The position numbers and the translations under genes were made by a program. Below are positions 18,368 to 41,090 of a stretch of DNA of 64,000 bases, in pieces; position 1 is the stretch's first letter, and every line of letters begins with the position of its first letter. The DNA is from Chitinophagales bacterium (lineage in GTDB: Bacteria > Bacteroidota > Bacteroidia > Chitinophagales > JADIYW01). Under the pieces are notes generated by a model, which saw nothing but the letters and a program-made list of their open reading frames with translations, did no database searches and was not told the DNA's origin. The stretch is taken from NCBI GenBank assembly GCA_020636535.1, contig JACJXT010000011.1, positions 1,202,151 to 1,266,150 of the forward strand, read 5' to 3'.

Positions 18368-18932
18368 TTCCTTCTAAAAATCTATTAAATTATTTTTTAT
18401 AGTATATTTTACTATATTTATGCCATGGTTCGTGTCTCACGAAACAAATATGAAGTAAAAATTTTCGTAATAAATTTCTAATGCTTAGGTATATTCAAGC
18501 AATTTTTCTTAGTGCATGGAGAAGAAAAAAGACAAGTACTTTCTTCTAAAAATCTATTAAATTATTTTTATAGCATATTTTACTATATTTATGCCATGGT
18601 TCGTGTCTCACGAAACAAATATGAAGTAAAAATTTTCGTAATAAATTTCTAATGCTTAGGTATATTCAAGCAATTTTCTTTATTACACGGCGAAGAAAAA
18701 CAACAAGTACTTTCTTCTAAAAATCTATTAAATTATTTTTTATAGCATATTTTACTATATTTATGCCATGGTTCGTGTCTCACGAAACAAATATGAAGTA
18801 AAATTTTTCACAATAAGTTTCTAATACTTAGGTATATTCAAGCAATTTTCTTTATTACACGGAGAAGAAAAACAACAAGTACTTTCTTCTAAAAATCTAT
18901 TAAATTATTCTTTATAGCATATTTTACTATAT
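18368..18932. repeat. tandem array, 3 full units of 171-172 bp plus a terminal partial unit
   Basis: Units start at 18368, 18540, 18711 and 18883. Each unit has three parts. B (50 nt) is a copy of the last 14 codons, stop and 6 nt of the response-regulator gene. C (79 nt) carries the hairpin ttcgtg-tct-cacgaa. A (43 nt) is a copy of 18236-18278 inside the MBL gene. The last B is the real 3' end of 18889-19530. Confidence 0.9.
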
Positions 18933-19530
18933 CCAGAGTTGTGCTAACACCTAGTTTATCAAAGATTTTGTATTTGTGAGTGTCTACTGTACTCGTAGAT
19001 AGATTAAGCGTATTGGCAATTTCTTTGTACGACATACCTTCTGCAAACAGTCGTACTATTTCTAATTCTCTATCAGTAAGTATTTTGTCTTTATATAAAT
19101 TCGGATTGATATCTTGTTCTGCTTTAATATTTTGTATTTGTGCTACAATATCACTAGAAAAATAAGATTGATGATTTAATACAGTTGCTATAGCAATCAG
19201 TAATTCATCGTTAGAAGAAGATTTGCTTACAAAACCATCGAAACCAATTTTAGTACATTGTGCAAGCGTATGATCATCAGTAGAAGAGGAGAGTCCTATA
19301 ATTTTTATACTTAGATTGTCTTTTTTAATTTGTTTAGCAATATAAATACCAGAATCACCACCTAAACGAATATCTAATAATATAATATGTATTTCATTAT
19401 TGTTTAATGCATCTTCTAAAGCCATCAAATCACTAACCATTGCTATAACTTTGTATTGGCTACCTAAAAGCAATGCTTTAATTCCTTGTGCTACAATTTT
19501 ATGGTCTTCAACAATAATTACACTATACAT
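18889..19530 (-). CDS. LuxR/NarL-family response regulator (REC + HTH)
   Basis: REC domain (IIVEDH...ILLDIRLGGDSG...), then LTDRELEIVRLFAEGMSYKEIANTLNLSTSTVDTHKYKIFDKLGV. It starts 1 nt after the kinase stop. Confidence 0.85.
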   Translation of the reverse strand: MYSVIIVEDHKIVAQGIKALLLGSQYKVIAMVSDLMALEDALNNNEIHIILLDIRLGGDSGIYIAKQIKKDNLSIKIIGLSSSTDDHTLAQCTKIGFDGFVSKSSSNDELLIAIATVLNHQSYFSSDIVAQIQNIKAEQDINPNLYKDKILTDRELEIVRLFAEGMSYKEIANTLNLSTSTVDTHKYKIFDKLGVSTTLDIVKYAIKNNLIDF

Positions 19531-19531
19531 A

Positions 19532-21544
19532 TTACATATTGAAAATAATATAAAAATCGCTACCTTGTTTTATCTCACTGTTAAAACCAACATTAGCGTT
19601 CATTTTTTCTGCTAGCTCTTTACATAAAATCAAACCTAAACCAGTACCTTTTTCGCTAGAATTACCAACAGTGCTAGTATCTGCTTCTATATTAAAAATT
19701 TTTTGTTGGTCATTTTCACTAATACCAATTCCATTGTCTTTTACACCAACTTTAATTTTTTTATCATTTAAAATTTCAGAATATAATAAAATAGTACCAT
19801 TGTTTGGTGTAAACTTTATAGCATTAGATATATAATTTCGTATAATAGTTTCAATTATATTATCATCTATATTGGCTTGTATGGTATTGTCAATAGTATT
19901 ATTGATAGTAATGTTCTTTTCTGCTGCATTGTATTGAAGTGCATCAACTGCTTTTTGACTTATAGGTAAAATTGCTTGTTCTTGAAGATTAACTTTTATA
20001 TTATTGGTTTGCGATAAAGACCATTTTAGCATATTTTGTAGTAGTTCAAATAGTTTGTTAGAGGAATCATTTATTGTAAGCAGAAATTCATTAATTTCTT
20101 CTTTAGATAAATTGAATATTTGTTTTTGTAATGCATTAGTGATATTTCTAAAAGCAGACAATGGATTTTTTAAATCGTGAGCTACTATAGAAAAGAGTTT
20201 GTCTTTTGTAGCATTAAGTGTTTTTAATTGTTGATTTTTTTCTTGTAGTATAGCATTGGTCTCTGTTTTAAATTGATTGCTTTTTCTAAGTACATTTACT
20301 AGATATAGAAGTAGTAAAGAAAGTAATGCAATAGCAATTAAAATAATCATATTGCGTTTTAACTTACTTTGTTTTAATAGGTTGTCTTTTTCTAATAAAT
20401 TAATTTGTGTTTCTTTTTTTTCTGTTTCATAGTATTCATCTAAGTAATAAATGTCAGAAGCTAATGCAGCATTGGCAATAGAGTCTTCTATGGTTTTGTA
20501 TCTTTTATAATACTCCAAACTTAATTTATAGTTTTCTTTGTCATTATTCAATAAATATAAATTGTATAGATTGTCTTTTAATCCATCATAATCTTCAAAA
20601 GCTTCTAATGCATTCTTACATTTTAATAAATATTGTTCAGCAGTAGAAAACTCTTTTTTAACTCTATAAATATTGCCTTTAATATCGTAGCAATAAGCTA
20701 AAGCAAAATCATCATTAATAGATCTAAAATAATTAATAGCCGAGTCAATATATTGATTCGCTAAATTTATTTGATTGGTTTCTGCTAAAAAGTTAGCATA
20801 ACTAATATAAGTGTTATTTAATTTATAAGTAAAATCACTTTTTTTGTCTAAGGTCATACTTTTATCAAAGTATTTTTTTGCATTTGAATAATCTTTGCTT
20901 TCTAAATAATTTATAGACAAATTATTTAATAGACTACTTTTTATAGAAGGAATACTAGCAACAGCTAAACCTTTTTTAATATATTTATTAGAAGTTTCGT
21001 ATTGTTTTAAATTAGCATAGTTAATACTTAAACTATTATAAAAATAAGGCAGCACTTCTGCATTTATACTGTCTTTATGTTGTTCGTAATATTTTATAGC
21101 ATCTAATAAGTATTTGCTAGATAACTTATAGGCACTTAAATCAGAATAGGTTAAACCAAGATCACCTAAAATACTGGTAATTTTTAAATGGTCATTAATT
21201 GCATAAGCAATATCAAGTGCTCTATTAAAATATACTAAAGCAGAATCTTGTTTCTCTAACGATACAAAAGCGAGACCTTTAGTTCTAAGTGCTACACAAT
21301 TTTGAAATGAATTTTGCTTTAATTTATTGATTTTAAAAATATTATTTATAATAATAATAGAAGAATCAGGATTATATTTCCAATACAGCTCTGCTAACTT
21401 TAATTGTGCATCAATTTTCTTATCTGTTGATTTACTTTGCCGAATAACTTTATTCAAGCTATCAATTGTAGTATTAGCATTTAATTGTGAACTAAATAAA
21501 CAAAAAAGTAAAAACCATATGTAGTTTAACTTCAAAGATTTCAA
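19532..21544 (-). CDS. sensor histidine kinase with extracytoplasmic TPR-like repeat domain
   Basis: Signal peptide, ~370 aa of TPR-like repeats, one TM (MIILIAIALLSLLLLYLV), the H-box FSIVAHDLKNPL, and N and G boxes (GTGLGLILCKELAEKM). Apparent TTG start. Confidence 0.85.
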   Translation of the reverse strand: MKSLKLNYIWFLLFCLFSSQLNANTTIDSLNKVIRQSKSTDKKIDAQLKLAELYWKYNPDSSIIIINNIFKINKLKQNSFQNCVALRTKGLAFVSLEKQDSALVYFNRALDIAYAINDHLKITSILGDLGLTYSDLSAYKLSSKYLLDAIKYYEQHKDSINAEVLPYFYNSLSINYANLKQYETSNKYIKKGLAVASIPSIKSSLLNNLSINYLESKDYSNAKKYFDKSMTLDKKSDFTYKLNNTYISYANFLAETNQINLANQYIDSAINYFRSINDDFALAYCYDIKGNIYRVKKEFSTAEQYLLKCKNALEAFEDYDGLKDNLYNLYLLNNDKENYKLSLEYYKRYKTIEDSIANAALASDIYYLDEYYETEKKETQINLLEKDNLLKQSKLKRNMIILIAIALLSLLLLYLVNVLRKSNQFKTETNAILQEKNQQLKTLNATKDKLFSIVAHDLKNPLSAFRNITNALQKQIFNLSKEEINEFLLTINDSSNKLFELLQNMLKWSLSQTNNIKVNLQEQAILPISQKAVDALQYNAAEKNITINNTIDNTIQANIDDNIIETIIRNYISNAIKFTPNNGTILLYSEILNDKKIKVGVKDNGIGISENDQQKIFNIEADTSTVGNSSEKGTGLGLILCKELAEKMNANVGFNSEIKQGSDFYIIFNM

Positions 21545-21599
21545 TATTCATAGTTTTGATATGATAAATTTACCTTTTTTTATTGAGTTAAAAAAATTA

Positions 21600-21646
21600 T
21601 AGTGAAAAATCACTATGGTACAAAAAGAAGCATCATTATACCTTTA
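21600..21646 (+). promoter_or_regulatory. island cis element P1: palindrome TAGTGAAAAATCACTA + fixed-distance CTTTA
   Basis: Perfect 6-4-6 inverted repeat at 21600-21615. CTTTA at 21642-21646, 28 nt after the T of TATGG. 22 nt lie between CTTTA and the ATG at 21669. The site sits in the divergent region shared with the kinase gene. Confidence 0.6.
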
Positions 21647-21668: not shown

Positions 21669-22130
21669 ATGAAAACAATCACATTCATTTTAGTTAGCTT
21701 ACTAGGTTTTGCTAGCTACGCACAAGACAACTTTGCTTTTTATCAAGCACAACACAACAACAGTTCGTATCAAAATCAAATGGTAACCATTTATGATATA
21801 GCTGATGCGTCGTTATTAAAATCTACTATTGATTTTAGTAATAAAGAACAATCGTACAAAAATTTTATCGCAAAGAATTACAACGAAACAAGTATTCAGT
21901 TTTATGTAAATACTTTAGACCAAAATGTAGGTATTGATATTAAAGGCAATCAACTAAACCATTACATTACTAAAATTATGGATGCTAATGGAGCTGTACT
22001 ATCTCAATTACCAGCAACTGATAATTTAAATGCAAAGCTATGTACTAAAAATTGGGACAAAGGTACTTATCTCATTCAAATTGTAGATACTAACTATGAG
22101 GTACTAGCAACAGCAATGGTAGAAAAATAA
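21669..22130 (+). CDS. small secreted protein with probable T9SS C-terminal sorting domain
   Basis: Signal peptide MKTITFILVSLLGFASYAQ (I use the ATG at 21669, not 21615). The C-terminus ...KGTYLIQIVDTNYEVLATAMVEK resembles the type A CTD of 24586-25062. Confidence 0.6.
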   Translation: MKTITFILVSLLGFASYAQDNFAFYQAQHNNSSYQNQMVTIYDIADASLLKSTIDFSNKEQSYKNFIAKNYNETSIQFYVNTLDQNVGIDIKGNQLNHYITKIMDANGAVLSQLPATDNLNAKLCTKNWDKGTYLIQIVDTNYEVLATAMVEK

Positions 22131-22159
22131 CAAGAGTTCTTTATGTATCAACCTTTTTT

Positions 22160-22284: not shown

Positions 22285-22331
22285 TAGCGAAAAAATACTA
22301 TGGAATATTTATTTAAAAACAATCAACTTTA
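22285..22331 (+). promoter_or_regulatory. island cis element P2
   Basis: TAGCGAAAAAATACTA (degenerate, 5-nt spacer) at 22285-22300. CTTTA at 22327-22331, the same 28-nt offset from TATGG. 33 nt to the ATG at 22365. Confidence 0.5.
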
Positions 22332-22364: not shown

Positions 22365-22808
22365 ATGAAAAATATAATTAAAATTACGCTACTACTTTTT
22401 GCATGTACTTTACTACTAAATGCTTGTAAAAAAGAAAACATCATTTTTAAAAATGAGTTTATGCACACTTGGTATCTTCAAAAATATGAAGAAAATGGAG
22501 TAGACAAAACACAAGAGTTTGACTCAGTTTACCATAACTATACGCTAACATTTGATAATGTAAAAAACTATGCTACAGATGAATATGATGATATTTTTAT
22601 AGAATCTTTTTATCATCACGGAACATTGTTCGTAGAATATTATGGCTTTTTTCAGTTCTTACGACCAGACAAACTAAAGCTACAATATAGTGGTAGTACA
22701 TATAATACAAAAGCATTTACAATAGAATTTGTAAACAAAGGTAGCGACGAATTTATCATCAATGAGGTGAGTGGTATTACTACCAAACGCTATTCCTTTA
22801 GAAAATAA
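22365..22808 (+). CDS. hypothetical lipoprotein
   Basis: Signal peptide with lipobox LLNAC. 147 aa, beta-rich. No motif recognised. Confidence 0.5.
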   Translation: MKNIIKITLLLFACTLLLNACKKENIIFKNEFMHTWYLQKYEENGVDKTQEFDSVYHNYTLTFDNVKNYATDEYDDIFIESFYHHGTLFVEYYGFFQFLRPDKLKLQYSGSTYNTKAFTIEFVNKGSDEFIINEVSGITTKRYSFRK

Positions 22809-22872: not shown

Positions 22873-22919
22873 TAGCGAAAAATTACTATGGTAAAGTCGT
22901 ATAGCATTTATAAGCTTTA
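22873..22919 (+). promoter_or_regulatory. island cis element P3
   Basis: TAGCGAAAAATTACTA at 22873-22888. CTTTA at 22915-22919 (same offset). 27 nt to the ATG at 22947. Confidence 0.5.
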
Positions 22920-22946: not shown

Positions 22947-24575
22947 ATGAAAACAATTTTAAAAACAAGTTTCTTTTTAGTGGTATTATTAATTACTACA
23001 ACTATTGTAGCACAAACACCACAATCATTCTCTTATCAAACTGTAATAAGAGATAACACAGGTAATCCATTAGCTAATCAAAGTATAAGCTTAAAAATAA
23101 GTATACTAAAAGGAGAATCAAATGGAACTACTGTTTATTCAGAAACACATAATAAAACAACTAATGCTTTTGGGTTAGTCAATTTAAATATTGGAGATGG
23201 TAGTGTTGTAAGTGGCAACTTTGCTAACATTAATTGGGGAAACGACATCTATTTTGTTAAAACAGAATTAGATGCTACTGGTGGAAACAATTTTACAGTA
23301 ATGGGCGTGCAACAGTTATTATCAGTTCCTTATGCATTACATGCCAAAACTGTAGCAATAGATAATGTAAACGATGCAGATGCCAATCCAACAAATGAAT
23401 TACAAGATTTATCTTTCAATAATTCAACTGGAGTATTAAGTATTAGCAACGGAAATTCTGTTACATTACCAACAACTTCTGGTGGTGATAATTGGGGAAC
23501 ACAAACCGTACAACACAATACAACACTAAGTGGAAACGGAACAACAGCAAGTCCATTACAAGTGGTAGGCGATTTAACCGACGACCAAACACTTTCATTG
23601 AGTGGGAATAACTTATCTATTAGCGGAGGAAATTCAGTTAATTTAAATAGTATAGATAATCAAATACTTACATTAAGTGGCGATAATTTAACTATAAGTA
23701 ATGGTAATACTGCAAATTTAAGTAGTATCGATAATCAAACGCTTTCGTATAATAGCGTATCTGGTCAGTTGAGTATTGTTAATGGAAATAGTGTTACCAT
23801 TCCATCTTCTGCGGATAATTGGGGTAGTCAAACAGTACAACACAATACAACACTAAGTGGAAATGGAACAACAGCAAGTCCATTACAAGTGGTAGGCGAT
23901 TTAACTGATGATCAAACACTTGCACTAAGTGGAAATACCTTAAGTATAAGTGACGGAAATAATGTAGATATGTCTGGTATATCATCTTTTATTTATAGAC
24001 AAATAAATTTAGATCCAAGTTATCCTGAGTTAGATGATGTCAATCAAATTGTATACTTAAATGGTACTACAAGTACAGTAGCACTGCCTTCAGATCCAAC
24101 AATAGGTAGAATTGTATATTTAACTTCCTCTGCTTCTGCAACTAAAATTTCATCGAACGGTAAAGCTTTACGAAAAGATGGAACTACTTATTTAGGAGAT
24201 ACTATTATTACTATGCAAAATTTAGCTAATGGAACTGGAATAATTGGTTTAATATATACAGGCAATCAATGGATGCTATTTTCTAATGAATCAAATGCTG
24301 GATTGAAAACTAAAGTTCAAGGTAAAGTAGATGCAACTGGTTTTGCAGGAGCATTCTATGTTTCTAAACCTGTTGTTGGTACTAAGGTCAGTACTGGCAC
24401 TTATAGATTAAGTATAGATTCAGAAAATATGAATATATATAACTGCATGGTAACTACAAAAACAGAAGGAACAATTGCATCCGTTTCTAATAGTGCAGAC
24501 TATATAACTATTTATATATATGATATATTTACAAATTTGAAAGTAGATTCTGAATTTAATTTTATCCTATATTAA
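22947..24575 (+). CDS. secreted repeat protein (fibre/adhesin-like), function unknown
   Basis: Signal peptide. Multiple short D(N/D)QxLSLSGNxLSISxGNSVxL-type repeats. A ~109-aa internal duplication. No T9SS CTD seen. Confidence 0.55.
   Translation: MKTILKTSFFLVVLLITTTIVAQTPQSFSYQTVIRDNTGNPLANQSISLKISILKGESNGTTVYSETHNKTTNAFGLVNLNIGDGSVVSGNFANINWGNDIYFVKTELDATGGNNFTVMGVQQLLSVPYALHAKTVAIDNVNDADANPTNELQDLSFNNSTGVLSISNGNSVTLPTTSGGDNWGTQTVQHNTTLSGNGTTASPLQVVGDLTDDQTLSLSGNNLSISGGNSVNLNSIDNQILTLSGDNLTISNGNTANLSSIDNQTLSYNSVSGQLSIVNGNSVTIPSSADNWGSQTVQHNTTLSGNGTTASPLQVVGDLTDDQTLALSGNTLSISDGNNVDMSGISSFIYRQINLDPSYPELDDVNQIVYLNGTTSTVALPSDPTIGRIVYLTSSASATKISSNGKALRKDGTTYLGDTIITMQNLANGTGIIGLIYTGNQWMLFSNESNAGLKTKVQGKVDATGFAGAFYVSKPVVGTKVSTGTYRLSIDSENMNIYNCMVTTKTEGTIASVSNSADYITIYIYDIFTNLKVDSEFNFILY
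23487..23977 (+). repeat. internal direct duplication inside 22947-24575
   Basis: About 165 nt starting at 23487 (gataattggggaacacaaaccgtacaacacaat...) recur at 23814, an offset of 327 nt, with few substitutions. Confidence 0.8.
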
Positions 24576-24585
24576 ACTAAAAAAC

Positions 24586-25062
24586 ATGAAAAATATACTA
24601 TTTATAATCATATTTTTATTTACTATTAAAGCTTACACACAAGAAGTAATTGCTACAACTGGAAATCATTATAGCAATACCAATTATAGCATGAGTTTTA
24701 CTATTGGCGAACCTATTATTACTACTTATACTACTAGTAATATTATAATGACACAAGGTTTTCATCAAACAAAATTGACAGATATTGCTAGTTTTATTAA
24801 AAACTTTTATAGTGATGCGACTATTAGTGTGTTTCCAAATCCAGCAGTAAACAGTGTACAAATTAATTTGAAGAGTGATAAACTAATTCAATACAAAACC
24901 AATGTATATGATATTAGTGGAAAATTAATTTACCAAACAGCATTATTAAATGCCACTCAACAACAAATAGAAGTTAGTCATTGGTCTGTTGGTACTTATA
25001 TTATACAAGTAGTCGATGATAAAAACCAAGCACTAGCAACTGCAAAAATTATTAAACAATAA
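24586..25062 (+). CDS. small T9SS C-terminal-target-domain protein
   Basis: Signal peptide. The GEPIITT...MTQGFHQ motif is common in small Bacteroidota secreted proteins. Clear type A CTD: VFPNPAVNSVQINL...GTYIIQVVDDKNQALATAKIIKQ. Confidence 0.75.
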   Translation: MKNILFIIIFLFTIKAYTQEVIATTGNHYSNTNYSMSFTIGEPIITTYTTSNIIMTQGFHQTKLTDIASFIKNFYSDATISVFPNPAVNSVQINLKSDKLIQYKTNVYDISGKLIYQTALLNATQQQIEVSHWSVGTYIIQVVDDKNQALATAKIIKQ

Positions 25063-33100: not shown

Positions 33101-36100
33101 TACCGTAGCAGCAAATTCTTTTCAAAATATGTTTAGAAATGCAATAAATTTTAATCAAAATTTAGCCAATTGGACATTAAAACCAACAGTAAATATGTTA
33201 CTAATGCTCGATAATGCTGGCTTAGATGTCAATAACTACGATGCTACACTTATTGGTTGGGAAGCTCAAGGCATTACTGGTAGAAATTTGGGTGCTTTAA
33301 ACTTAAAATATTGTGCTGCAGCACTACAAAGAAATAATTTAATTACTACTTATGGTTGGACAATTACTGGAGATAGTAGAGATTGTGGTGATCCTTTTAT
33401 TACTACTTGGAAAACAGACAATACAGGTATTTCTTCTAGTACTTCTATTACAATTCCAACTACAGGTACTGGCTACTACTACGATGTAGATTGGAACAAC
33501 GATGGTATTTTCGATGAATTTGGTATTACTGGCGATGTTACGCACGATTTTGGTGTTGCTGGTACTTATACTATTCGCATACAAGGTGCTTTTCCTAGAA
33601 TCTATTTCAACAATAGTGCTAGTTCAGATAAAGCAAAACTACTAGAAGTCAATCAATGGGGAGATGTTGTTTGGACAAGTATGAACGGTGCTTTCGCTGG
33701 CTGTACCAACTTAAGGGTTTTTGCTACAGATGCACCAGACTTATCTAGCGTTACAGATATGACTTCAATGTTTGCAAGATGTAGCTATATGAATGATAAT
33801 ATCAATCATTGGGATGTAAGCAATGTTACCAATATGACTTATTTATTCCTTTTTGCTTCACGATTTAACCAGCCATTAAATGATTGGAATGTAAGTAATG
33901 TAAATAATATGACAGGTGTTTTTCAATATGCATCAAAATTTAATCAAGACATAAGCGATTGGGAGGTAGATAATGTTATACGCTTTAGTTCTATGTTTAG
34001 GTATGCACCAGTGTTTAATCAACCACTAAATACATGGAATGTAAGTAATGGAATCTACTTTACAAATATGTTTAATGGAGCATATGCTTTTAATCAACCA
34101 TTAAGTACATGGAATATAAGCAATACAACAAGTTTAAAAGAAATGTTTTACTATGCTACTAGCTTTAATCAAAATCTAAGTAATTGGAATATAGCAGGAG
34201 TTACAGATATGACAAATATGTTATCTTATTCAGCTTTAGATGTTGCTAATTACGATGTTACACTTATTGGTTGGGAAGCACAAACAGTTCAAAATAATGT
34301 TCCTTTAGGTGCTATTAATTTAAGATATTGTGCAGCAGAGATACAAAGAAGCAATTTAATCACTACAAATACATGGACAATTACTGGAGATGCTAGAGCT
34401 TGTGGTAATCCATTTGTCACTACATGGAAAACAGACAATGCAGGTACTTCATCTAGTACTTCTATTACAATTCCAACTACAGGAACAGGTTACTACTATG
34501 ATGTAGATTGGAACAATGACGGTATTTTTGATGAATTTGGCTTAACTGGTGATGTAACTCATAATTTTGGTACAGCAGGTACTTACCAAATTGCTATCAG
34601 AGGTGATTTTCCTAGAATATATTTTAATAATGCTGGCGATAAAGATAAAATACTAAGTATAGACCAATGGGGAGACATTGAATGGACTTCAATGGAAAAT
34701 GCTTTCCATGGTTGTACTAATTTAATATCTTCAGCTATAGATGCACCAGATTTAAGCATCTGTACCATTTTAGATGGAATGTTTGCTCGTTGTACTAATT
34801 TTAATGCTAGCATTAATCATTGGAATGTAATTACTATTACTGATATGTCGGCTATGTTTTATCTAGCATATGCTTTTAATCAACCATTAGATAATTGGAA
34901 TGTAAGTAATGTAACAGATATGCATAGAATGTTTAGTGCCGCAATAGCATTTAATCAACCATTAAATAATTGGGATGTAAGTAATGTAATAGATATGTCA
35001 TATATGTTTTACAATACAGATGTTTTTAATCAATCACTAAACAATTGGAATACAAGTAGCGTAATCAATATGTCATATATGTTTTCTTATTCTAATGTTT
35101 TTGATCAGCCACTAAATAATTGGAATACTAGTAGTGTAATAGATATGTCAGAGATGTTTCATAATGCAGATGCTTTTAATCAACTATTAAATAATTGGAA
35201 TGTTAGTAGTGTTACTAATATGTCAGCTATGTTTTTTTCGGCAAACGCCTTTAATCAACCATTAAATACTTGGAATGTAAGTAGCGTAACTAATATGTCA
35301 GAGATGTTTATATACGCATCATCATTTAATCAACCATTAAATACTTGGAATGTAAGTAGCGTAACTAATATGTCATATATGTTTAATCATGCAACAGTAT
35401 TCAATCAATCATTAGCTAACTGGAATATTACAGCTGTAACAGATATGACAGATATGTTGTCTTTCTCTGGTTTAGATGTGGATAATTACGATAATACACT
35501 AATTGCTTGGGAAGCTCAAACAGTACAAAACAATGTGCCTCTCGGTGCTACATATCTTAAATATTGTGCAGCAGATGTGCAAAGAAGCAACTTAATAAGC
35601 ACTTATGGCTGGACAATTACTGGAGATAATAAAATTTGCGGTGAGCCATTCATCACTACATGGAAAACAGATAATGCAGGTGTTTCTTCTAGTACTTCTA
35701 TTACCATACCTACAACAGGCACTGGTTACAATTACGATGTAGATTGGAACAACGATGGTATTTTTGATGAATTTAATATTACTGGCAATGTTACACACGA
35801 CTTTGGCGTTGCTGGTACTTATACCATTCGCATACAAGGTGCTTTTCCTAGAATATATTTTCATGCTACTGGCGATAAAGACAAAATATTAAGCGTAAAT
35901 AAATGGGGCGATATTCAATGGTCTTCTATGGAATATGCTTTTGGGGATTGTAGCAATTTAAATGTTATCGCAACAGATGCTCCAGATTTATCTAATGTAA
36001 CTTCTCTTCATTCTATGTTTTCAAATTGCACTAATTTCGATGCTAATATTAATCATTGGGATGTTAGTAATGTAACCAATATGTCATATATGTTTTCAAG

Positions 36101-38147
36101 AGCAGATGCTTTTAATCAACCATTAAATAACTGGAATGTAAGTAGTGTAATTGATTTGTCAGGTATGTTTTATAATGCAATTGCATTTAATCAACCATTA
36201 AATAATTGGGATGTTAGTAGTGTAACAGATATGTCATATATATTTAATAATGCAACTCTATTTAATCAACCATTAAATAACTGGAATGTAAGTAATGTAA
36301 CTAATATGTCATTTATGTTTAATAACGCGAGTGAATTCAATCAATCTTTAAATACATGGAATGTAAGTAATGTAACAGAGATGATTTGGATGTTAAATTA
36401 TAGTGGCTTAGATATTCTCAATTACGATGCTACACTTATTGGCTGGGAAGCACAAACTGTACAAAATAATGTTTCATTAGGAGCTATTAATTTAAGATAT
36501 TGTGCAGCAGATATACAAAGAAATAATTTAATTACTACAAATGGTTGGATAATTAATGGCGATGGCAAAGCTTGTGGGGAGCCATTTATTACCACTTGGA
36601 AAACAGATAATGCAGGTTCATCTTCTAATACATCTATTACAATTCCAGCTTCAAGTACTGGTTTCGGATACGATGTAGACTGGAACAATGATGGTGTTTT
36701 TGATGAATTGGGTATTGGAAGCAGTATTACTCATGATTTTGGTGTGGCTGGCACATATACTATTCGTATACGAGGTAACCTCTCAATGCTTTATTTTAAT
36801 AATACGGATGATAAAGATAAAATTTTAAGTGTAGACCAATGGGGAGATATTGAGTGGACAAGTATGTATTTTGCATTTAATGGCTGTAGTAACTTAAATG
36901 TAACAGCAATAGATGCTCCAGATTTAAGTGGCGTAACTTCTTTAAGAGGTATGTTTTATAAATGTACAAGTTTAAATGCCAACATTAATCATTGGGATGT
37001 AAGTACTATTACTGATATGGCATCAATATTTTATGAAGCAACTGCATTTAACCAACCATTAAATAATTGGAATGTAAGCAATGTAACCGATATGTTAGCT
37101 ATGTTTTATAATACAAGTTCCTTTAACCAAGATTTATCTTCGTGGAATGTAAGTAAGGTAACTAGTATGGCATATATGTTTAATGGAGCTAGTAGTCAGC
37201 AATTAAGAACTGCTAATAATAACACTTTACAGAATAATTTCTCAGCTTTAAATATAAGTTCGTGGGATGTAAGTAATGTTACAAACATGTTTGCTATGTT
37301 TAGAAATGCTACGGCTTTTAATGGAAATATTAGTACTTGGAATACGAGTAGCGTAACAGATATGGCTTTAATGTTTGAAAATGCAAGTTCATTTAACCAA
37401 AATTTAGGAACTTGGGATATCTCCAATGTTGCAGATATGACCAATATGTTAGACAACACCGCATTATCTTTAGCTAACTACGATAATATATTAATAGGAT
37501 GGGAAGCACAAACAGTACAAAATAATGTTTCGCTTGGTGCTTTAAACTTAAATTATTGTGCTGGTGCTACTGCAAGACAAAATTTAATTGACAATAGCTC
37601 GTGGACAATTACCGGCGATAATTTAATGTGTGTGTTGCCAGTAGAGTTGCTTTCATTTACAGCAACAGAAAATAATAATGAAGTAATACTAAATTGGGAA
37701 ACTGCTACAGAAATCAACAATAAAGGTTTTGAAATTGAGTACAGTACAGATGCTATTAATTGGATTACTATAGGTTTTGTAGAAGGACAAGGCAACGCTT
37801 CATTTAATACTTCTTATGATTTTACACATCAAACACCAGAAAATGGCAACAACTACTATCGCTTAAAACAAATAGATTTAGATGAAACATTTACTTATTC
37901 TGATATAGCAATAGTTAATATAGAAAACAATCATCATGTGGAGGAATTTAGTATTTATCCAAATCCAGTAATCAATATTTTAAATATTAAAGGAAAAGAT
38001 AATTTTAATGCTACTATTATAAATGAAATTGGACAAATAATTAAGCAGTTTGCTAACATAAAACAAATAGATGTAAGCAATTTTGCCAAAGGCATGTATA
38101 TTATTCAGTTTGATGATGCTAGTACAATTAAGTTTATTAAAAATTAA
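30114..38147 (+). CDS. giant (2677 aa) T9SS-secreted BspA-family / DUF285-type repeat surface protein
   Basis: Signal peptide. Seven modules, each made of three parts: an N-terminal (A/P)F(I/V)TTWKTDN...YDVDWNNDGIFDEF...FPRIYF domain; a variable number of ~23-aa FNQPLNNWDVSNVTNMxxMF repeats (the DUF285/BspA LRR-like pattern); and a YDATLIGWEAQ...WTITGD cap. A VLPVELLSF...YYRLKQIDLD domain and a type A T9SS CTD follow (FSIYPNPVINILNI...GMYIIQFDDASTIKFIKN). Confidence 0.85.
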   Translation: MKNIFTLLFLMVMAYVLPKNANAQAFITTWKTDNAGSSSSTSITIPTLAGETYNYDVDWNNDGIFDEFGLTGDVTHDFGVAGTYTIRIQGTFPRIYFNNTGDRQKILSIDQWGNIAWTSMHSAFHGCTNLNLTAIDAPDLSNVTSLGYMFNSCTNFNANINHWDVSNITDMIAMFDSAYVFNQPLNDWNVSNVTNMAEMFYWAVSFNQPLNNWDVSNVTQMAKMFYNANKFDQSLNNWDVSSVTNMSYMFCNANKFNQPLNNWNVSNIKYMAYMFASASTFNQPLNNWDVSNVGVMEGMFYYAISFNQPLNNWDVSNVIRMNSMFSHATSFNQPLFLWNVSKVQYIDYMFYYASSFNQNLGNWNIKNTIYSTNKLKYMLSYSGLDCINYSATLIGWSNNTSTPNGLQLSAQNLQYGTNALTARNKLLAKGWTIIGDSPSGTGCSLPFITTWKTDNTGVSSSTSITIPTTGTGYYYDVDWNNDGIFDNFGVTGSITHNYGVAGSYQVAIRGDFPRIYFNNTGDKQKILSIDQWGDIQWSSMENAFYGCRNLNFSLIPAPYLGNVTSLKSMFFACFNLNANLNHWNTSTITDMSNLFNLANSFNQPLNNWNVSNVTNMSKMFASIPLFNQPLNDWDVSSVTDMSSMFNTVQAFNQPLNNWDVSNVTNMRYMFFNETSFNQPLDNWTVSSVTDMYGMFNSASSFNQSLATWSLNPIVNMSIMLNYSGLDVSNYDATLIGWEAQGISNRTLGATNLNYCNAALQRSNLITTYGWTITGDTKICGASFITTWKTDNAGSSSSTSITIPTFVGESYNYDVDWNNDGIFDDFGVTGDITHDYGVAGTYQVAIRGGFPRIYFNATGDRLKILSVDQWGDITWSSMESAFNSCSNLNITAIDAPDLSGATSLRRMFAGCSSLNANINHWNTTTITDMSYLFNGANTFNQPLNNWNVSNVTNMYAIFSGATAFNGNITSWDVSKVQLFTLAFNAATNFNQDIAAWNTVAANSFQNMFRNAINFNQNLANWTLKPTVNMLLMLDNAGLDVNNYDATLIGWEAQGITGRNLGALNLKYCAAALQRNNLITTYGWTITGDSRDCGDPFITTWKTDNTGISSSTSITIPTTGTGYYYDVDWNNDGIFDEFGITGDVTHDFGVAGTYTIRIQGAFPRIYFNNSASSDKAKLLEVNQWGDVVWTSMNGAFAGCTNLRVFATDAPDLSSVTDMTSMFARCSYMNDNINHWDVSNVTNMTYLFLFASRFNQPLNDWNVSNVNNMTGVFQYASKFNQDISDWEVDNVIRFSSMFRYAPVFNQPLNTWNVSNGIYFTNMFNGAYAFNQPLSTWNISNTTSLKEMFYYATSFNQNLSNWNIAGVTDMTNMLSYSALDVANYDVTLIGWEAQTVQNNVPLGAINLRYCAAEIQRSNLITTNTWTITGDARACGNPFVTTWKTDNAGTSSSTSITIPTTGTGYYYDVDWNNDGIFDEFGLTGDVTHNFGTAGTYQIAIRGDFPRIYFNNAGDKDKILSIDQWGDIEWTSMENAFHGCTNLISSAIDAPDLSICTILDGMFARCTNFNASINHWNVITITDMSAMFYLAYAFNQPLDNWNVSNVTDMHRMFSAAIAFNQPLNNWDVSNVIDMSYMFYNTDVFNQSLNNWNTSSVINMSYMFSYSNVFDQPLNNWNTSSVIDMSEMFHNADAFNQLLNNWNVSSVTNMSAMFFSANAFNQPLNTWNVSSVTNMSEMFIYASSFNQPLNTWNVSSVTNMSYMFNHATVFNQSLANWNITAVTDMTDMLSFSGLDVDNYDNTLIAWEAQTVQNNVPLGATYLKYCAADVQRSNLISTYGWTITGDNKICGEPFITTWKTDNAGVSSSTSITIPTTGTGYNYDVDWNNDGIFDEFNITGNVTHDFGVAGTYTIRIQGAFPRIYFHATGDKDKILSVNKWGDIQWSSMEYAFGDCSNLNVIATDAPDLSNVTSLHSMFSNCTNFDANINHWDVSNVTNMSYMFSRADAFNQPLNNWNVSSVIDLSGMFYNAIAFNQPLNNWDVSSVTDMSYIFNNATLFNQPLNNWNVSNVTNMSFMFNNASEFNQSLNTWNVSNVTEMIWMLNYSGLDILNYDATLIGWEAQTVQNNVSLGAINLRYCAADIQRNNLITTNGWIINGDGKACGEPFITTWKTDNAGSSSNTSITIPASSTGFGYDVDWNNDGVFDELGIGSSITHDFGVAGTYTIRIRGNLSMLYFNNTDDKDKILSVDQWGDIEWTSMYFAFNGCSNLNVTAIDAPDLSGVTSLRGMFYKCTSLNANINHWDVSTITDMASIFYEATAFNQPLNNWNVSNVTDMLAMFYNTSSFNQDLSSWNVSKVTSMAYMFNGASSQQLRTANNNTLQNNFSALNISSWDVSNVTNMFAMFRNATAFNGNISTWNTSSVTDMALMFENASSFNQNLGTWDISNVADMTNMLDNTALSLANYDNILIGWEAQTVQNNVSLGALNLNYCAGATARQNLIDNSSWTITGDNLMCVLPVELLSFTATENNNEVILNWETATEINNKGFEIEYSTDAINWITIGFVEGQGNASFNTSYDFTHQTPENGNNYYRLKQIDLDETFTYSDIAIVNIENNHHVEEFSIYPNPVINILNIKGKDNFNATIINEIGQIIKQFANIKQIDVSNFAKGMYIIQFDDASTIKFIKN
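30189..37632 (+). repeat. seven tandem coding modules within the giant gene
   Basis: Module starts (the TTWKTDN-encoding ttcattactacttggaaaaca and variants) at 30189, 31449, 32459, 33393, 34410, 35646 and 36582. Module lengths are about 934-1260 nt. Confidence 0.85.
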
Positions 38148-38152
38148 TAACA

Positions 38153-39019
38153 ATGAATAAAAAGTATTTAATAATAGCATTGTTTTTATTTCTTTTTGCT
38201 ACTTTAAAAAGTCAAGAATTACCACAAATAAAATCAATTACAGTTTTGGCAGATAAAGCAATGTATCATACTCAAGGTTTTCAAGTGCAAATAATTTTTA
38301 CTAAGTCATTAAGCACTTATATAACTGAATTCAATAATGCACCATTGCAAATAGAAGTATATCCAAAATATAGAAAAAAGAAAAATAAATTTGTGAGAAT
38401 TGAAAATCCTAAATGGTTTGATGATTTACGAAACTCATTTAGTATCAGTAGAATTACTTCTGATACAGCAGTAATAGATTTCTCTTATATTAATTTTACA
38501 CAATTTTCAAATAAAAATATAGACCTTCTATTTGATGTTGAACTCAAACAGTCTGATTATAAAAATCCATTAAATAATAAGTATTTTGTGTTAGATGCTA
38601 GTAATCAAATTGTAAACAGTGTGGCAATTCCAAAATTATATAATTTAAATTTATTAGTTAATGAATATAATGTTTCAAAAATTAATACCGATGTAAAAAT
38701 TTTGGGTTATGGCAACAAAAAACCAGATTCCTATTTTATTATAAAATATCCTGCATTTCAAGAATTTAAATCAAAGGTTTTTAAAAATACACTTCAAGTA
38801 GAAAATACTGAATCTAGTAATGGTACACTTACATCAAACGATTCAATAAAAATTCTATTTTATGATAGAGATAAAATAACATTTGATGATTTTTTAGATA
38901 AATATGAGTTTTCTATAAATGAATTGCTGTTAAATAAATCTTCAGTTATAAATGTTAACTTAGATGCTATTAATAACTTGGAGATAACATACACTATAAA
39001 AGAAGCAACAAAAAAGTAA
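38153..39019 (+). CDS. secreted hypothetical protein
   Basis: Signal peptide (...ATLKSQE). Starts 5 nt after the giant gene's stop. Confidence 0.5.
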   Translation: MNKKYLIIALFLFLFATLKSQELPQIKSITVLADKAMYHTQGFQVQIIFTKSLSTYITEFNNAPLQIEVYPKYRKKKNKFVRIENPKWFDDLRNSFSISRITSDTAVIDFSYINFTQFSNKNIDLLFDVELKQSDYKNPLNNKYFVLDASNQIVNSVAIPKLYNLNLLVNEYNVSKINTDVKILGYGNKKPDSYFIIKYPAFQEFKSKVFKNTLQVENTESSNGTLTSNDSIKILFYDRDKITFDDFLDKYEFSINELLLNKSSVINVNLDAINNLEITYTIKEATKK

Positions 39020-39688
39020 ATGGAGAATAAAGTCGAAAAAAATAAGGTTTTAAAAGATACAGCAATACCATCATTATTTAGTATTGTTTTAGACTTAATA
39101 TTTTTTGTACTAATACCGTTTATTGTAGTAGCAAGTATAGTGTTAATTATTAGTGGCTTTTATTTTACAGTAAAAGGCAATAATTATTTTAACGGTAAAA
39201 ATCCAATTTTAGATTTTATATTCTTTTTACACATTATATTTTATTTGTTTATTTTAATTATATATCCAACCGTAAAAATTGCAGGCACTATAGATTACTA
39301 TGGAGAAATTGATGAACAACCAACTACTCAAAAACTATTGTTTATTATTGGATTATTACTGCCTTTTGTAGCTGTTTTATTAATTAATTCCTTAGAAGAA
39401 TTTAACTTTAAAATATTTGTTTTAGAAGTCTTTTTTATAGATGTAATAGGTTTAGTACTTGGAGCAGTAGCATCTTCTGTAATAAGTTATAAATCTTCAA
39501 ATGCTAATGATGAAAGTAATTTTATTTTTTCTTATGGTTTGTTTTTTACAATTCCAACTATGATGATAGTATATATAAAAATAATATCATTAACTACATT
39601 TATGCCAAATATAGGTTTTATTTTATTAGCTATATTAGCCATTACAACTTATAATAATTATAAAATAATGAAAGTAGTATGTTTATGA
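39020..39688 (+). CDS. polytopic membrane protein (about 6 TM), unknown function
   Basis: Starts immediately after the previous stop. Several long hydrophobic segments. Confidence 0.5.
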   Translation: MENKVEKNKVLKDTAIPSLFSIVLDLIFFVLIPFIVVASIVLIISGFYFTVKGNNYFNGKNPILDFIFFLHIIFYLFILIIYPTVKIAGTIDYYGEIDEQPTTQKLLFIIGLLLPFVAVLLINSLEEFNFKIFVLEVFFIDVIGLVLGAVASSVISYKSSNANDESNFIFSYGLFFTIPTMMIVYIKIISLTTFMPNIGFILLAILAITTYNNYKIMKVVCL

Positions 39689-40371
39689 TGAAGATAAATA
39701 TAATAATATTATTTAATATGCTTTTTTCTTTGTCGTGCAAGCAGAAAACTAGTATTCAAGATAAAGTTAAAACTAGTATTGTTGATACAATGCCAAACCA
39801 AACTAAAAAAAATGTATTAAAAGACACCAATGAAATTAAAAAATATTTTAAAATCTATGATGCAAATTTATTTCTTCTGCAAGATGTAAACTTCGATGGT
39901 ATAAAAGATGCAATGACTATAGTTATAGATACTATTCTTAATGAAGATAACATAGTTACCAGTGTCGCCATTTTTGAAGGTAATAAAAACCAAACATTCA
40001 ACCAACCAAAATTCTTTTATTCAGATGATGATAATCAAACCTTTTCAGTTAATAAAAAAGGTGTTATAGCAATAAGCTATCAAGCAATGCGTAACGATGT
40101 AACACTTAAAATAAGATATGATGCTAAGTACAATAACTACATGGTTATTGGAAAAGATATTTTATATTACCAAAGTGGAGATTGCGATTATAATAAGTAT
40201 AGCATGAACTATTTAACAGGAAAAGCTATACATGAAGAAAGTTGTTGGGATGTTACAATTCAAAATCAAAAAGTAAATACAGATACAATAAATTTTAAAC
40301 CAACGCTATATTCATTCGAAGATATTCCAAACTTTGACGACTTTTTATATGAAACACCTTTTTATAATTAA
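39679..40371 (+). CDS. hypothetical lipoprotein
   Basis: Lipobox FSLSC. Overlaps the previous gene by 10 nt. The start could also be 39685 or 39688. Confidence 0.5.
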   Translation: MFMMKINIIILFNMLFSLSCKQKTSIQDKVKTSIVDTMPNQTKKNVLKDTNEIKKYFKIYDANLFLLQDVNFDGIKDAMTIVIDTILNEDNIVTSVAIFEGNKNQTFNQPKFFYSDDDNQTFSVNKKGVIAISYQAMRNDVTLKIRYDAKYNNYMVIGKDILYYQSGDCDYNKYSMNYLTGKAIHEESCWDVTIQNQKVNTDTINFKPTLYSFEDIPNFDDFLYETPFYN

Positions 40372-40401
40372 AAAATTAAATAAATTATGTATATATTCTT
40401 A

Positions 40402-40427
40402 GCAGTGTCTCTCGAAGAGGACGCTGC
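40402..40427. repeat. GTCTCTC-loop hairpin element
   Basis: gcagtgtc-tctcgaagag-gacgctgc (one G:T pair) right after the stop of 39679-40371. Homologous to 27922-27949. Confidence 0.6.
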
Positions 40428-40496
40428 GTTTAATGATAACTATATTACACAAATATCAATTGTTTTCATTTGATGGAACTTTTAAAACAAATAAAA

Positions 40497-41090
40497 ATGA
40501 AAAAAATACTATATATAACACTCATAATCTTAACTTCTTCTTGCACAGTACTCAATACGCTAAGTCAGAAAGAAGAAAAAATATTTTTGAAAGAAGCAGA
40601 ACCAATTAAAATTTCTATAGACGAAGGCGAATTGCCAAACGAATATATGATAAGTTTTGATGATGGCTTAGCAGAAAACTTAAACGAATTTGTCTATACT
40701 GAAGAATTATACAAAGATGATGCTATTGCTATTGCTGCACTTTGGATGTTAGCAGTACGAGAGTATAATGTAGACAATAGTTGGTACTTATCATATTTTG
40801 CTACAATTTTAGATAATGATTTTTTTAACTATAACAAGGGTAGGAAAGGAGAATTAAAAGAAACAACTAAAACAAAACTCAATTCGTATTTAAAAAACAC
40901 TAATTTTTCTAACTATAAACTATCATGTTGGCAAAAACAATACAGTTTAAATTTTTGTTTATGGATGGCAATAGTTGATGGAGTAAACACTGGCGAGTTT
41001 ATTGTAAGAATACGAGACAAAAACTTCAAATACAAAACACTAGTACTCAACAATACAAAAAATGGATATAAAGTAATTGATTTTTTATAA
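40497..41090 (+). CDS. hypothetical lipoprotein
   Basis: MKKILYITLIILTSSC lipobox from the ATG at 40497. The track ORF begins at an upstream TTG. Confidence 0.5.
   Translation: MKKILYITLIILTSSCTVLNTLSQKEEKIFLKEAEPIKISIDEGELPNEYMISFDDGLAENLNEFVYTEELYKDDAIAIAALWMLAVREYNVDNSWYLSYFATILDNDFFNYNKGRKGELKETTKTKLNSYLKNTNFSNYKLSCWQKQYSLNFCLWMAIVDGVNTGEFIVRIRDKNFKYKTLVLNNTKNGYKVIDFL

Follow-up and report, generated by a model that had tools for sequence, protein, structure and literature searches.

A lineage-specific cluster of secreted-protein genes with a predicted MAT-type fibre, its putative partner and a PARCEL-type adhesin beside a two-component system in Chitinophagales

The island described here comes from a Chitinophagales MAG and comprises about sixteen kilobases of secreted-protein genes beside a two-component regulator, in a window of 64 kb (the whole stretch of DNA that was analysed). 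Most of its small proteins are lineage-restricted. Fourteen genes, termed g1 to g14, are positioned on the plus strand, and the original prediction that they are co-oriented and all encode exported products was confirmed in both gene positions and export signals. The features are as follows, the operator/promoter elements being candidates.

18889..19530, minus strand: response regulator, Response_reg plus GerE/LuxR HTH
19532..21544, minus strand: sensor histidine kinase with signal peptide, TPR, one TM, HisKA and HATPase_c
21600..21620, plus strand: operator/promoter element 1, TAGTGAAAAATCACTATGGTA, 69 nt upstream of the g1 ATG
21669..22130, plus strand: g1, small secreted protein, degenerate T9SS type A sorting domain
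22285..22305, plus strand: operator/promoter element 2, 80 nt upstream of g2, 2 mismatches
22365..22808, plus strand: g2, 147-aa lipoprotein, lipobox LLNAC
22873..22893, plus strand: operator/promoter element 3, 74 nt upstream of g3
22947..24575, plus strand: g3, trimeric fibre of MAT type, non-S74, by profile matches
24586..25062, plus strand: g4, 158-aa fibre partner with leader, N-domain of ~50 aa, linker and T9SS type A sorting domain
25067..26104, plus strand: g5, secreted and helical, from a lineage-restricted family; paralogue of g6
26111..27178, plus strand: g6, g5 paralogue, with 31% identity to a relative's gene that follows the second palindrome there
27176..27196, plus strand: operator/promoter element 4, 77 nt upstream of g7, overlapping the last g6 codons
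27253..27903, plus strand: g7, 216-aa lipoprotein, lipobox VLSC
27979..28470, plus strand: g8, 163-aa secreted protein, signal-peptidase-I type leader
28475..29110, plus strand: g9, DUF6935 lipoprotein (PF22043, 96 bits), lipobox IVSC
30045..30065, plus strand: operator/promoter element 5, 69 nt upstream of g10, closing a 1003-nt non-coding gap
30114..38147, plus strand: g10, PARCEL/DUF285 (BspA-type) surface protein, 2677 aa, T9SS type A sorting domain
38153..39019, plus strand: g11, 288-aa secreted protein with two homologues in the relative's cluster
39020..39688, plus strand: g12, 222-aa polytopic membrane protein, by sequence reading
39679..40371, plus strand: g13, 230-aa lipoprotein, lipobox SLSC
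40470..41090, plus strand: g14, 206-aa lipoprotein, lipobox TSSC, last gene of the cluster

Five lipoboxes had been predicted, and all five were read from the sequence (g2, g7, g9, g13 and g14); the other products carry signal-peptidase-I type leaders, apart from the polytopic g12, again as anticipated. Among the three T9SS sorting domains that had been proposed, those of g4 (PF18962, 53 bits against a cutoff of 27; TIGR04183, 43.6 against 23) and g10 (35.5 and 28.5 bits) are clear, whereas that of g1, previously called probable, falls below threshold (23.8 bits against 27, and 21 against 23) and was picked up by a local sorting-domain HMM. The paralogy of g1 to g4 is confined to the leader and the sorting domain (25.8% identity). 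No T9SS core gene is present in the 64-kb window. The statement that none of the small proteins has a nameable motif had to be abandoned, as g3 is a MAT-type fibre, g4 a fibre partner and g9 a DUF6935 protein, beside the PARCEL/DUF285 protein g10.

The remaining products are largely nameless. The g5 and g6 proteins are 24% identical and belong to a family with three representatives in a set of 1.84e9 and with g5 homologues in loci L058 and L149, while a g5 search of 5.8e9 proteins found only g5 itself. For g11, neither a family match nor a PDB match was obtained, and g12 has no family match in Pfam or NCBIfam. Searches of Pfam, NCBIfam and PHROG returned no match for g2, g7 or g8, and family profiles gave none for g13 or g14; as these five have no detectable relatives, they are assigned to the cluster purely by operator and operon position. 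Downstream of g14, an ancestral ABC1 3' remnant begins at 41127, and the stretch of 41.1–45.9 kb consists of an IS1634 insertion and an MBOAT/DltD-like cassette between duplicated ABC1-kinase 3' ends. This stretch is separate, and the block of 18.4–45.9 kb suggested earlier for strain comparison is thus not a unit.

The shared upstream element that had been invoked for these genes proved to be real and statistically strong. It consists of a 16-bp palindrome (TAGYGA-N4-TYACTA) plus TGGTA, with a -10-like CTTTAnAyTA 23 nt further on; five matches with 0–2 mismatches, all on the plus strand, were found in the 64-kb window against 0.14 expected, and none lies in the window outside the island. The element is located 69–80 nt upstream of exactly those genes that are preceded by intergenic gaps, and so stands before each of five predicted transcription units, g1, g2, g3–g6, g7–g9 and g10–g14. 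Element 1 sits in a 124-nt divergent region common to g1 and the kinase operon, with 56 nt separating it from the start of the kinase on the opposite strand. Terminator-like hairpins follow g1 (22160–22183, with a T-run) and g9 (29124–29156, z = -6.6), and a strong hairpin in the g7/g8 gap (-20.6 kcal/mol, z = -5.25) is related to one upstream of g14. In several genes, the similarity between the upstream stretches continues into the opening codons (ATGAAAACAAT). Of the tight spacing originally noted, some is indeed found, but it is not uniform, with intergenic gaps of 234, 138, 74, 75, 1003 and 98 nt. Likewise, the idea of one functional unit survives in that the genes look co-regulated through the common palindromic element, one copy preceding each of the five units, but not in the sense of one operon.

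Comparison with a related organism revealed that much of this arrangement is conserved. Loci L058 and L149 overlap at 100% identity and were read together as one relative, in which the order is fibre, two unrelated genes, partner, one small gene, palindrome, g6-like gene, g9-like gene (70% identity to g9), two g11-like genes (30% and 24% identity to g11), g5/6-like gene and polytopic protein. Homologues of g3, g4, g6, g9, g11 and g5/6 are therefore kept together in the order of the island, which is the opposite of the scattering in relatives that the original prediction had named as evidence against itself; the membrane protein at the g12 position has no detectable similarity to g12. A perfect palindrome is found in the relative upstream of the fibre homologue (L058) and of the g6 homologue, and it has been kept at 31–70% protein identity while the surrounding non-coding sequence diverged. 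In L145, the closest available g4 relative, a MiaB-like housekeeping gene comes after the fibre pair, suggesting that the content of the cluster is fluid rather than fixed.

The g3 protein has a conserved N-terminal beta-sandwich (residues ~25–125), a shaft of D-x-D-x-x-N-E-L-Q repeats and a variable C-terminal tip. It matches NCBIfam Bdello_MAT_N at 8e-10, below the cutoff, and its family profile matches T4 gp37, MYRF and, weakly, the Bdellovibrio MAT structure 8ojn; more than 2664 homologues were found, many of which end in a C-terminal Peptidase_S74 domain. The N-domain is predicted with a pLDDT of 85–97 and has no fold relative in the PDB. For the MAT fibres of Bdellovibrio, Caulton et al. 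(2024, PMC10769870) state that the N-terminal domain does not vary and presumably attaches to a surface element yet to be identified. Like the Bdellovibrio bacteriovorus MAT (PMC10769870), g3 has a Sec leader and a conserved N-terminal domain, and its family shares the repetitive shaft, swappable C-terminal tips and division into S74 and non-S74 subfamilies. The two differ in that g3 belongs to a Bacteroidota host with a T9SS and its N-domain match remains under the NCBIfam cutoff, that a dedicated small partner with a sorting domain adjoins the fibre gene, which is not reported for Bdellovibrio, and that nothing in the island points to predation. At five fibre loci elsewhere (L098, L100, L114, L128 and L131), bAvd and reverse transcriptase genes come next, a likeness to DGR-diversified receptor-binding proteins that fits fibre tips binding ligands; no reverse transcriptase or Avd gene occurs in the 64-kb window, indicating that g3 is not a DGR target here.

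The g4 protein belongs to one conserved family with members of about 160 aa, built of a 50-aa TQGFHQ domain (the motif is invariant in 25/25 aligned partners) and a T9SS sorting domain, which is found next to such fibre genes across Bacteroidota. A partner is present in 58/80 fibre loci, directly upstream of the fibre gene in 51/79 and directly downstream in 5/51, with a median gap of 10 nt. The sorting domain was detected in 67/71 partners and in none of 226 members of the fibre family (0/106 fibre ORFs and 0/120 database homologues). While the fibre tips vary (S74, non-S74 and DGR-linked), the fibre N-domain and the TQGFHQ domain are invariant and co-occur. From these comparisons, the g3 fibre and g4 partner form the conserved core of the cluster; g4 probably docks the fibre on the cell surface, and we infer that it supplies export and anchoring of the fibre in trans. 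In Flavobacterium johnsoniae, the adhesin SprB is exported in a T9SS-dependent manner that requires the adjacent partner gene sprF, and type B sorting domains go with PorP/SprF-like proteins. The island resembles this system in that a small partner is encoded beside a large surface adhesin, but an SprB-type adhesin itself has the sorting domain and its partner is an outer-membrane PorP-like protein, whereas the island fibre lacks such a domain and the small partner has a type A one.

The second large surface protein, g10, is by its sequence a seven-module PARCEL/BspA-type adhesin. Its tandem modules of 312–421 aa (starting at residues 26, 447, 783, 1095, 1434, 1846 and 2158) precede a pre-tail beta domain, and 16–22 repeat stretches were detected. 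The very high family scores (DUF285, 1440 bits; TIGR02167, 404 bits) are those of PARCEL/DUF285/BspA proteins (Roske et al., 2010, PMC2996958), and its FITTWKTDN-type module starts are typical of Bacteroidota members; it differs in that it is no mycoplasma lipoprotein but strings seven whole modules in tandem before a T9SS tail.

The TPR-sensor kinase and LuxR-type regulator were correctly recognised in the original prediction, and their domains were confirmed (Response_reg, 75 bits; GerE, 59 bits; an extracytoplasmic TPR region at residues ~25–385 with one TM segment). They do not head the genes as claimed, being on the minus strand and transcribed divergently from the fourteen. The regulator reached no NCBIfam equivalog, and the best NCBIfam match of the kinase is FimS of Porphyromonas. 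FimS/FimR of Porphyromonas gingivalis controls surface-appendage (fimbrial) genes, and a TPR-motif sensor kinase is what the two systems have in common; in contrast, the match of 187 bits is far under the 600-bit equivalog cutoff, the partner regulator of the island is LuxR/GerE-type, and its candidate targets bear no relation to type V pili. Immediately upstream of the partner-fibre pairs in L101, L135, L138, L150–152, L084, L110 and L113 are TPR kinases with regulators of LytTR or LuxR type, LytTR in L101, L135, L138 and L150 and LuxR in L084 and L110; the L113 kinase, encoded 1.6 kb upstream of a fibre module, is 28.6% identical to that of the island over 590 aa. Two-component genes account for 13/168 ORFs near fibre modules against 3/119 distant ones (odds ratio 3.2, p = 0.07), an enrichment that is only suggestive and includes some loci that are near-duplicates of one another. 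From adjacency, the regulator beside the island is inferred to bind the palindrome.

The reading that we favour, with roughly even confidence, is that of a small regulon rather than one operon: a cell-surface gene cluster, specific to the lineage, that encodes a regulated fibre and adhesin system. The extracytoplasmic TPR domain of the kinase would sense a signal and the kinase phosphorylate the LuxR-type regulator, a dimer of which would bind the palindromes, centred near -50, and switch the five units together. The T9SS would export the g4 protein, which would lose its sorting domain by cleavage and become attached to the outer surface. There, the g4 N-domain would grip the fibre by the latter's invariant N-terminal domain, and it may carry the fibre out; held in this way, the fibre is proposed to point its variable tip outward. 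The adhesin g10 would be exported by the T9SS route under palindrome control.

For the fibre, a somewhat unlikely alternative is that g4 is a periplasmic assembly factor or an independent co-expressed secreted or surface peptide, and that the fibre takes another route or stays periplasmic. The g4 N-domain, which has no Pfam, PDB or PHROG match, is modelled at low confidence (pLDDT 40–60), 40% of fully flanked fibre genes (16/40) have no adjacent partner, and co-divergence with the fibre is no stronger for the partner N-domain than for the sorting domain, so that the mirror-tree test does not discriminate (rho 0.74 vs 0.77). Bdellovibrio, which is not known to have a T9SS, makes MAT fibres. Docking is favoured by the tight adjacency (45/55 pairs at 14 nt or less, apparently translationally coupled), by fibres that never have a sorting domain next to partners that have little besides it, and by two co-occurring domains that stay constant as the tips change. 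As to control, it is rather unlikely that the element serves as promoter or operator for another factor whose gene lies elsewhere (an alternative sigma factor, say, or a one-component regulator), the adjacent two-component system controlling something else. Only adjacency ties this regulator and the palindrome together, Bacteroidota very commonly have TPR kinases, the enrichment around fibre modules falls short of significance, and the regulators near fibre modules differ in their DNA-binding domain. Against this stand the palindrome copy in the region common with the kinase operon, the recurrence of TPR-sensor systems directly upstream of partner-fibre pairs, and the 6-4-6 inverted repeat, the kind of site bound by dimeric GerE/NarL-type regulators.

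That there is no system at all, and that the locus is a patchwork of unrelated lineage-specific genes whose upstream similarity was left by duplicated promoter-plus-leader cassettes, would account for the many small proteins without relatives, for similarity that reaches into coding sequence, and for the rearrangement scars and IS elements flanking the region. We consider it improbable, given the preservation of the palindrome in the diverged relative, the gene order kept for six families and the restriction of the element to transcription-unit starts. A remnant of a prophage, tailocin or mobile genomic island carrying a tail-fibre gene is highly improbable: the fibre family has the S74 intramolecular chaperone in common with phage tail fibres, there are weak viral fold matches, and duplicated gene ends occur at both borders, but 0/10 island proteins have a PHROG match, no integrase, tRNA or phage structural gene is present, and the fibre N-domain was found in 3 loci in 2.9 million viral contigs against at least 590 metagenome stretches.

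If the regulated fibre and adhesin system is real, the organism would have a switchable change of adhesive surface structures; and if g4 acts on the fibre as we propose, the sorting domain would be supplied to the fibre in trans.

The cluster at 18889-41090 comprises a two-component gene pair on the minus strand and, divergent from it, 14 plus-strand genes for exported proteins (g1-g14, with starts from 21669 to 40470), at whose core lie a gene for a predicted MAT-type trimeric fibre (g3) and a gene for its small partner (g4). All genes listed in the original prediction were found in place, including the 14 plus-strand genes, and direct reading of the sequence bore out the predicted export signals, with lipoboxes in five proteins, a polytopic topology in one and leaders of the signal-peptidase-I type in the others. 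The idea of one functional unit gained real support with respect to co-regulation; rather than an undifferentiated island, the genes make up a cluster that resembles a regulon and has a recognisable core. The G+C content of the window is ~29%. The cluster is flanked by argB, argE and a beta-CASP nuclease gene on the left and, to the right, by ABC1-kinase and polyprenyl synthase genes, and the intergenic gaps from kinase/g1 through g13/g14 measure 124, 234, 138, 10, 4, 6, 74, 75, 4, 1003, 5, 0, -10 and 98 nt. The products of g3, g4 and g5 are identical to deposited proteins of a 'MAG: Chitinophagales bacterium' (locus tags H6553_05625 and H6553_05635), and exact look-ups recovered nothing beyond short Logan contigs from this organism. 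The genes and elements at the two ends of the cluster are as follows.

18889-19530, minus strand: response regulator, receiver domain and GerE/LuxR HTH
19532-21544, minus strand: sensor kinase with leader, TPR region, one TM segment, HisKA and HATPase_c
from 41127: remnant of an ABC1-kinase 3' end, behind g14
41324-43154: IS1634-family element inside the ABC1 remnant, with its transposase at 41464-43074 (NCBIfam, 350 bits)

Alignment of the upstream regions of genes that lie behind a gap revealed a block common to g1, g2, g3, g7 and g10; one conserved palindromic element stands in front of each of five units (g1, g2, g3-g6, g7-g9 and g10-g14). With 0-2 mismatches allowed, TAGYGAAWWWTYACTATGGTA is matched at five sites, all of them on the plus strand (21600, 22285, 22873, 27176 and 30045) and 69-80 nt upstream of the respective start codons, compared with 0.14 expected from shuffles; the sole further match within the window has three mismatches. 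The core of the element is the inverted repeat TAGTGA-N4-TCACTA. At one mismatch or fewer, this 16-bp core occurs in the window at the five island sites and at three scattered ones, the latter being about the number expected by chance; a palindrome at 1513 (one mismatch) was dismissed, since the rest of the element is missing there. A conserved CTTTAnAyTA, which includes a -10-like hexamer, follows 23 nt past the TGG of the element, and if this hexamer is the -10, the leaders would be short and the palindrome would be centred near -50. Scans for sigma-70 promoters performed no better than shuffles (88 vs 91 matches, and 65 vs 64). The Bacteroidetes motif TAnnTTTG has three intergenic plus-strand matches (21551, 29451 and 29966), and was set aside because the other gaps hold none.

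The most economical reading of these sequence features is that the cluster forms five transcription units served by one DNA-binding factor. Transcription as a single operon is excluded by the five promoter/operator copies, by the 1003-nt gap before g10 and by terminator-like hairpins with T-runs behind g1 (22160-22183) and g9 (29124-29156). Strong, related hairpins lacking T-runs lie in the g7/g8 gap (27920-27950; z = -5.25) and the g13/g14 gap (40400-40430; z = -2.55); they have the sequence GCAGnGTCTCTC...GAGGACnCTGC, and may affect the processing or stability of the RNA or cause partial termination. A mobile genomic island or prophage was also rejected, as no integrase or recombinase, tRNA/att target or phage structural gene is present within 18.9-41.1 kb. 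Ten island proteins had no match in PHROGs, the Rfam search gave no match, and no tRNA genes were found. In a scan of the species-genome collection with the ABC1 kinase, identity reached at most 49%, so that none of these genomes is a near relative, and no island genes were present in them.

The block suggested for strain comparison had extended to 45.9 kb. The ABC1 remnant, the IS1634 element and an MBOAT cassette all lie beyond g14, and the end of the cluster is therefore placed at ~41.1 kb. On either side of the IS1634 element lies one copy of a perfect direct duplication of the target, 351 bp long (40973-41323 = 43155-43505), which agrees with the very long, variable target duplications for which this family is known. 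In addition, the ABC1-kinase gene has its 3' end in two copies (43309-43594 versus the true gene end at 45940-46225; 286 nt, 93% identity), and the 2.3-kb MBOAT (DltB-like) and DltD-like cassette between them has the look of an insertion that supplied a replacement for the gene end itself.

Several repeats were observed in and around the cluster. A 172-nt unit is present in 3.3 copies (95% matches) at 18367-18932, between the converging genes of the beta-CASP nuclease and the response regulator, and each unit contains an antisense copy of the last ~14 codons of the regulator, the hairpin GTTCGTGTCTCACGAAAC and a stretch of 43 nt similar to positions 18236-18278 of the nuclease gene. The 32-nt hairpin element of this repeat recurs at 29419-29450 and 29839-29870, in the 1-kb gap before g10, giving five copies in the window against none expected. 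The same gap holds a 79-nt direct repeat (29170-29244 / 29494-29572, 84% identical). These hairpin copies and gap repeats may be REP-like, with IS200-family transposases nearby; an IS200/IS605-family element occurs twice (1-589 and 13771-14359, 97.5% identical over 590 nt). The beta-CASP/MBL nuclease (16967-18358) has the type VII CRISPR protein Cas14 as its best NCBIfam match, and was rejected as a Cas14 member at 423 bits against a cutoff of 800; no CRISPR array was seen. Further away, an ORF of 609 aa (61857-63686) contains an internal direct repeat (62202-62677 / 63147-63619, 64% identity over ~480 nt).

The N-terminus of g3 (residues 13-88) has a sub-cutoff match to the Bdellovibrio MAT N-domain, NCBIfam NF053851 (E = 8e-10; 38.7 bits, cutoff 60). 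A monomer prediction gave a confident beta-sandwich for this domain (pLDDT 85-97), with pLDDT <50 in the shaft. A fold search with the model found no PDB match at E <=0.001, and its viral matches were of low TM score and came from low-confidence regions. The MAT N-domain has no significant PDB fold relative either, and it presumably binds an unidentified surface element (Caulton et al., PMC10769870). The first ~60% of g3 is common to >2664 proteins, many of which end in a Peptidase_S74 (PF13884) chaperone domain that g3 is without; the family, divided into S74 and non-S74 members, thus has the chimeric MAT architecture of a common shaft and variable tips. Its profile matches T4 gp37, MYRF and, weakly, the MAT structure 8ojn, and the fibre N-domain is nearly missing from viral contigs (three loci). 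In five other loci (L098, L100, L114, L128 and L131), bAvd-like and reverse transcriptase genes lie 3' of the MAT-type fibre, so that some Bacteroidota fibres appear to be DGR targets, in agreement with ligand-binding tips. For g3 itself this role was rejected, with reverse transcriptase, Avd and a template repeat all absent from the window.

Importantly, the T9SS sorting domain resides on the partner only. No fibre carries one by HMM search, either among 106 ORFs or among 120 database homologues, and the same HMM detects g1, g4 and g10 as positive controls. In the g4 product (158 aa), a leader and a ~50-aa domain are followed by a linker and a type A sorting domain (PF18962, 53.1 bits, threshold 27; TIGR04183, 43.6, threshold 23), and the gene starts 10 nt behind the g3 stop codon. 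We define the S family as proteins of ~160 aa with a leader, a ~50-aa TQGFHQ N-domain and a type A sorting domain, encoded beside a MAT-type fibre; g4 belongs to it with an N-domain HMM value of 1.9e-21 and every invariant residue present. Fibre and partner are conserved and tightly linked. Among 80 metagenome loci with the fibre N-domain, searched with an HMM of the g4 N-domain, a partner was found in 58 overall; it lies directly upstream of 51 of 79 fibre genes and directly downstream of 5 of 51, and the median gap of partner-to-fibre pairs is 10 nt. The fibre-then-partner order is the minority, seen in the window, L058, L061-L064 and L066. TQGFHQ was invariant in all 25 partners compared, and the sorting domain was present in 67 of 71. 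The partner N-domain has no relative in Pfam, PDB or PHROG; the g4 model is confident for the sorting domain only, and the N-domain alone was modelled poorly. A mirror-tree test did not separate the partner N-domain from the sorting domain. No description of a fibre-partner pair was found in the literature searched, and the pairing, which rests on genomic association, appears to be new to it.

Comparison with a related organism, represented by two contigs from other sequencing runs (L058 and L149) that are 100% identical where they overlap, revealed the following order, in which six island families are therefore kept together in the same order.

First operon: palindrome; fibre (47% to g3); two unrelated genes; partner (59% to g4); 111-aa gene
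Second operon: palindrome; g6-like gene (31%); DUF6935 gene (70% to g9); two g11-like genes (30% and 24%); g5/6-like gene; polytopic protein

A perfect palindrome, TAGTGAAAAATCACTA, stands at the head of both operons, and the adjacent non-coding sequence has diverged. This merged cluster contains nothing that corresponds to g7, g8, the giant g10, g13 or g14. The cluster of the window looks like an expanded version, each added unit having an operator copy of its own. A search upstream of other fibre modules gave no shared palindrome of this kind. At another locus (L145), which encodes a closer relative of g4 (72% identity), a MiaB-like gene follows the fibre-partner pair, so that only the pair itself is constant.

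Sorting domains had been predicted in three genes; those of g4 and g10 (PF18962, 35.5 bits, threshold 27; TIGR04183, 28.5, threshold 23) are clear, and that of g1 (21669-22130) is only sub-threshold (23.8 bits vs 27, and 21 vs 23), although the local sorting-domain HMM detects it. With a Sec leader as well as a Por_Secre_tail domain above the family threshold, g4 and g10 have the sequence features of T9SS type A cargo. No T9SS core genes lie inside the 64-kb window. The g10 product is a PARCEL/DUF285 protein, a class defined by multiple ~25-aa repeats above threshold, with seven tandem modules and a T9SS tail (PF03382, 1439.6 bits over 16 stretches; TIGR02167, 403.6 bits over 22 stretches). 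The g9 product is a DUF6935 protein, a family for which no description was found in the literature searched. The paralogues g5 and g6 share 24% identity, and their profile finds three family representatives in 1.84 billion proteins; a database search with g5 retrieved only g5 itself. For g2, g7, g8, g12, g13 and g14, no relatives were found in anything searched, and PDB sequence searches with g7 and g11 gave no match.

The divergent gene pair has the classical two-component composition of a HisKA and HATPase_c kinase with a regulator gene 1 nt away. The leader and TPR region of the kinase precede its single TM segment, which places the TPR part outside the cytoplasm. Assignment as a FimS equivalog was rejected (187 bits on NCBIfam NF053520, which needs 600). 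The 124-nt region between the kinase operon and g1 holds one palindrome site, and TPR kinases with LytTR/LuxR regulators recur directly 5' of partner-fibre pairs at unrelated loci (L101, L135, L138, L150-L152, L084, L110 and L113). These two points make the LuxR-type regulator, once the TPR kinase has phosphorylated it, a candidate binder of the palindromes. Relative to flanks further away, two-component genes show an enrichment near fibre modules that is no more than suggestive (odds ratio 3.2, p = 0.07). A TPR-His_kinase sensor, LytTR regulator, partner (40% identity with g4), fibre (44% with g3) and 610-aa LRR protein are encoded in that order at L150 4625-11203, and also in L151 and L152; this fibre module and repeat adhesin beside a TPR two-component system form the same combination as in the window.

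T9SS exports folded proteins with sorting domains, many of which are fixed to the cell surface once that domain is removed. The partner may supply fibre export and/or anchoring by binding the invariant fibre N-domain. In a more far-reaching reading, a g4-family protein would be a minimal T9SS cargo that serves solely to lend its sorting domain in trans. After binding the invariant fibre N-domain in the periplasm, it would escort the folded fibre trimer across the T9SS translocon and finally become covalently attached to the outer surface, where it would form the foot of the fibre. In this lineage, the system would form a five-promoter regulon, governed through the 16-bp palindrome by a TPR-sensor two-component switch. 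We regard it as possible, if rather doubtful, that the g4 family is both the missing surface receptor of MAT fibres and their carrier in Bacteroidota, with the regulon here switched in this way.

If true, T9SS would gain its first described piggy-back module dedicated to export and anchoring, and a sorting domain supplied by a partner would extend the T9SS rule that each cargo has one sorting domain. On Bdellovibrio cells, phage-like MAT fibres have recently been identified as recognition devices, and the attachment of their conserved N-terminal end to the cell is the gap addressed here. Bacteroidota have thousands of related fibres, none with a T9SS sorting signal, which raises the question of how these fibres reach the surface and stay there; tight pairing with a mini-protein made essentially of a sorting signal and a 50-residue domain offers a concrete, testable answer. 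Furthermore, the five-fold operator, next to the sensor-regulator pair, would define a small regulon and give a functional context to otherwise unnamed, lineage-specific proteins.
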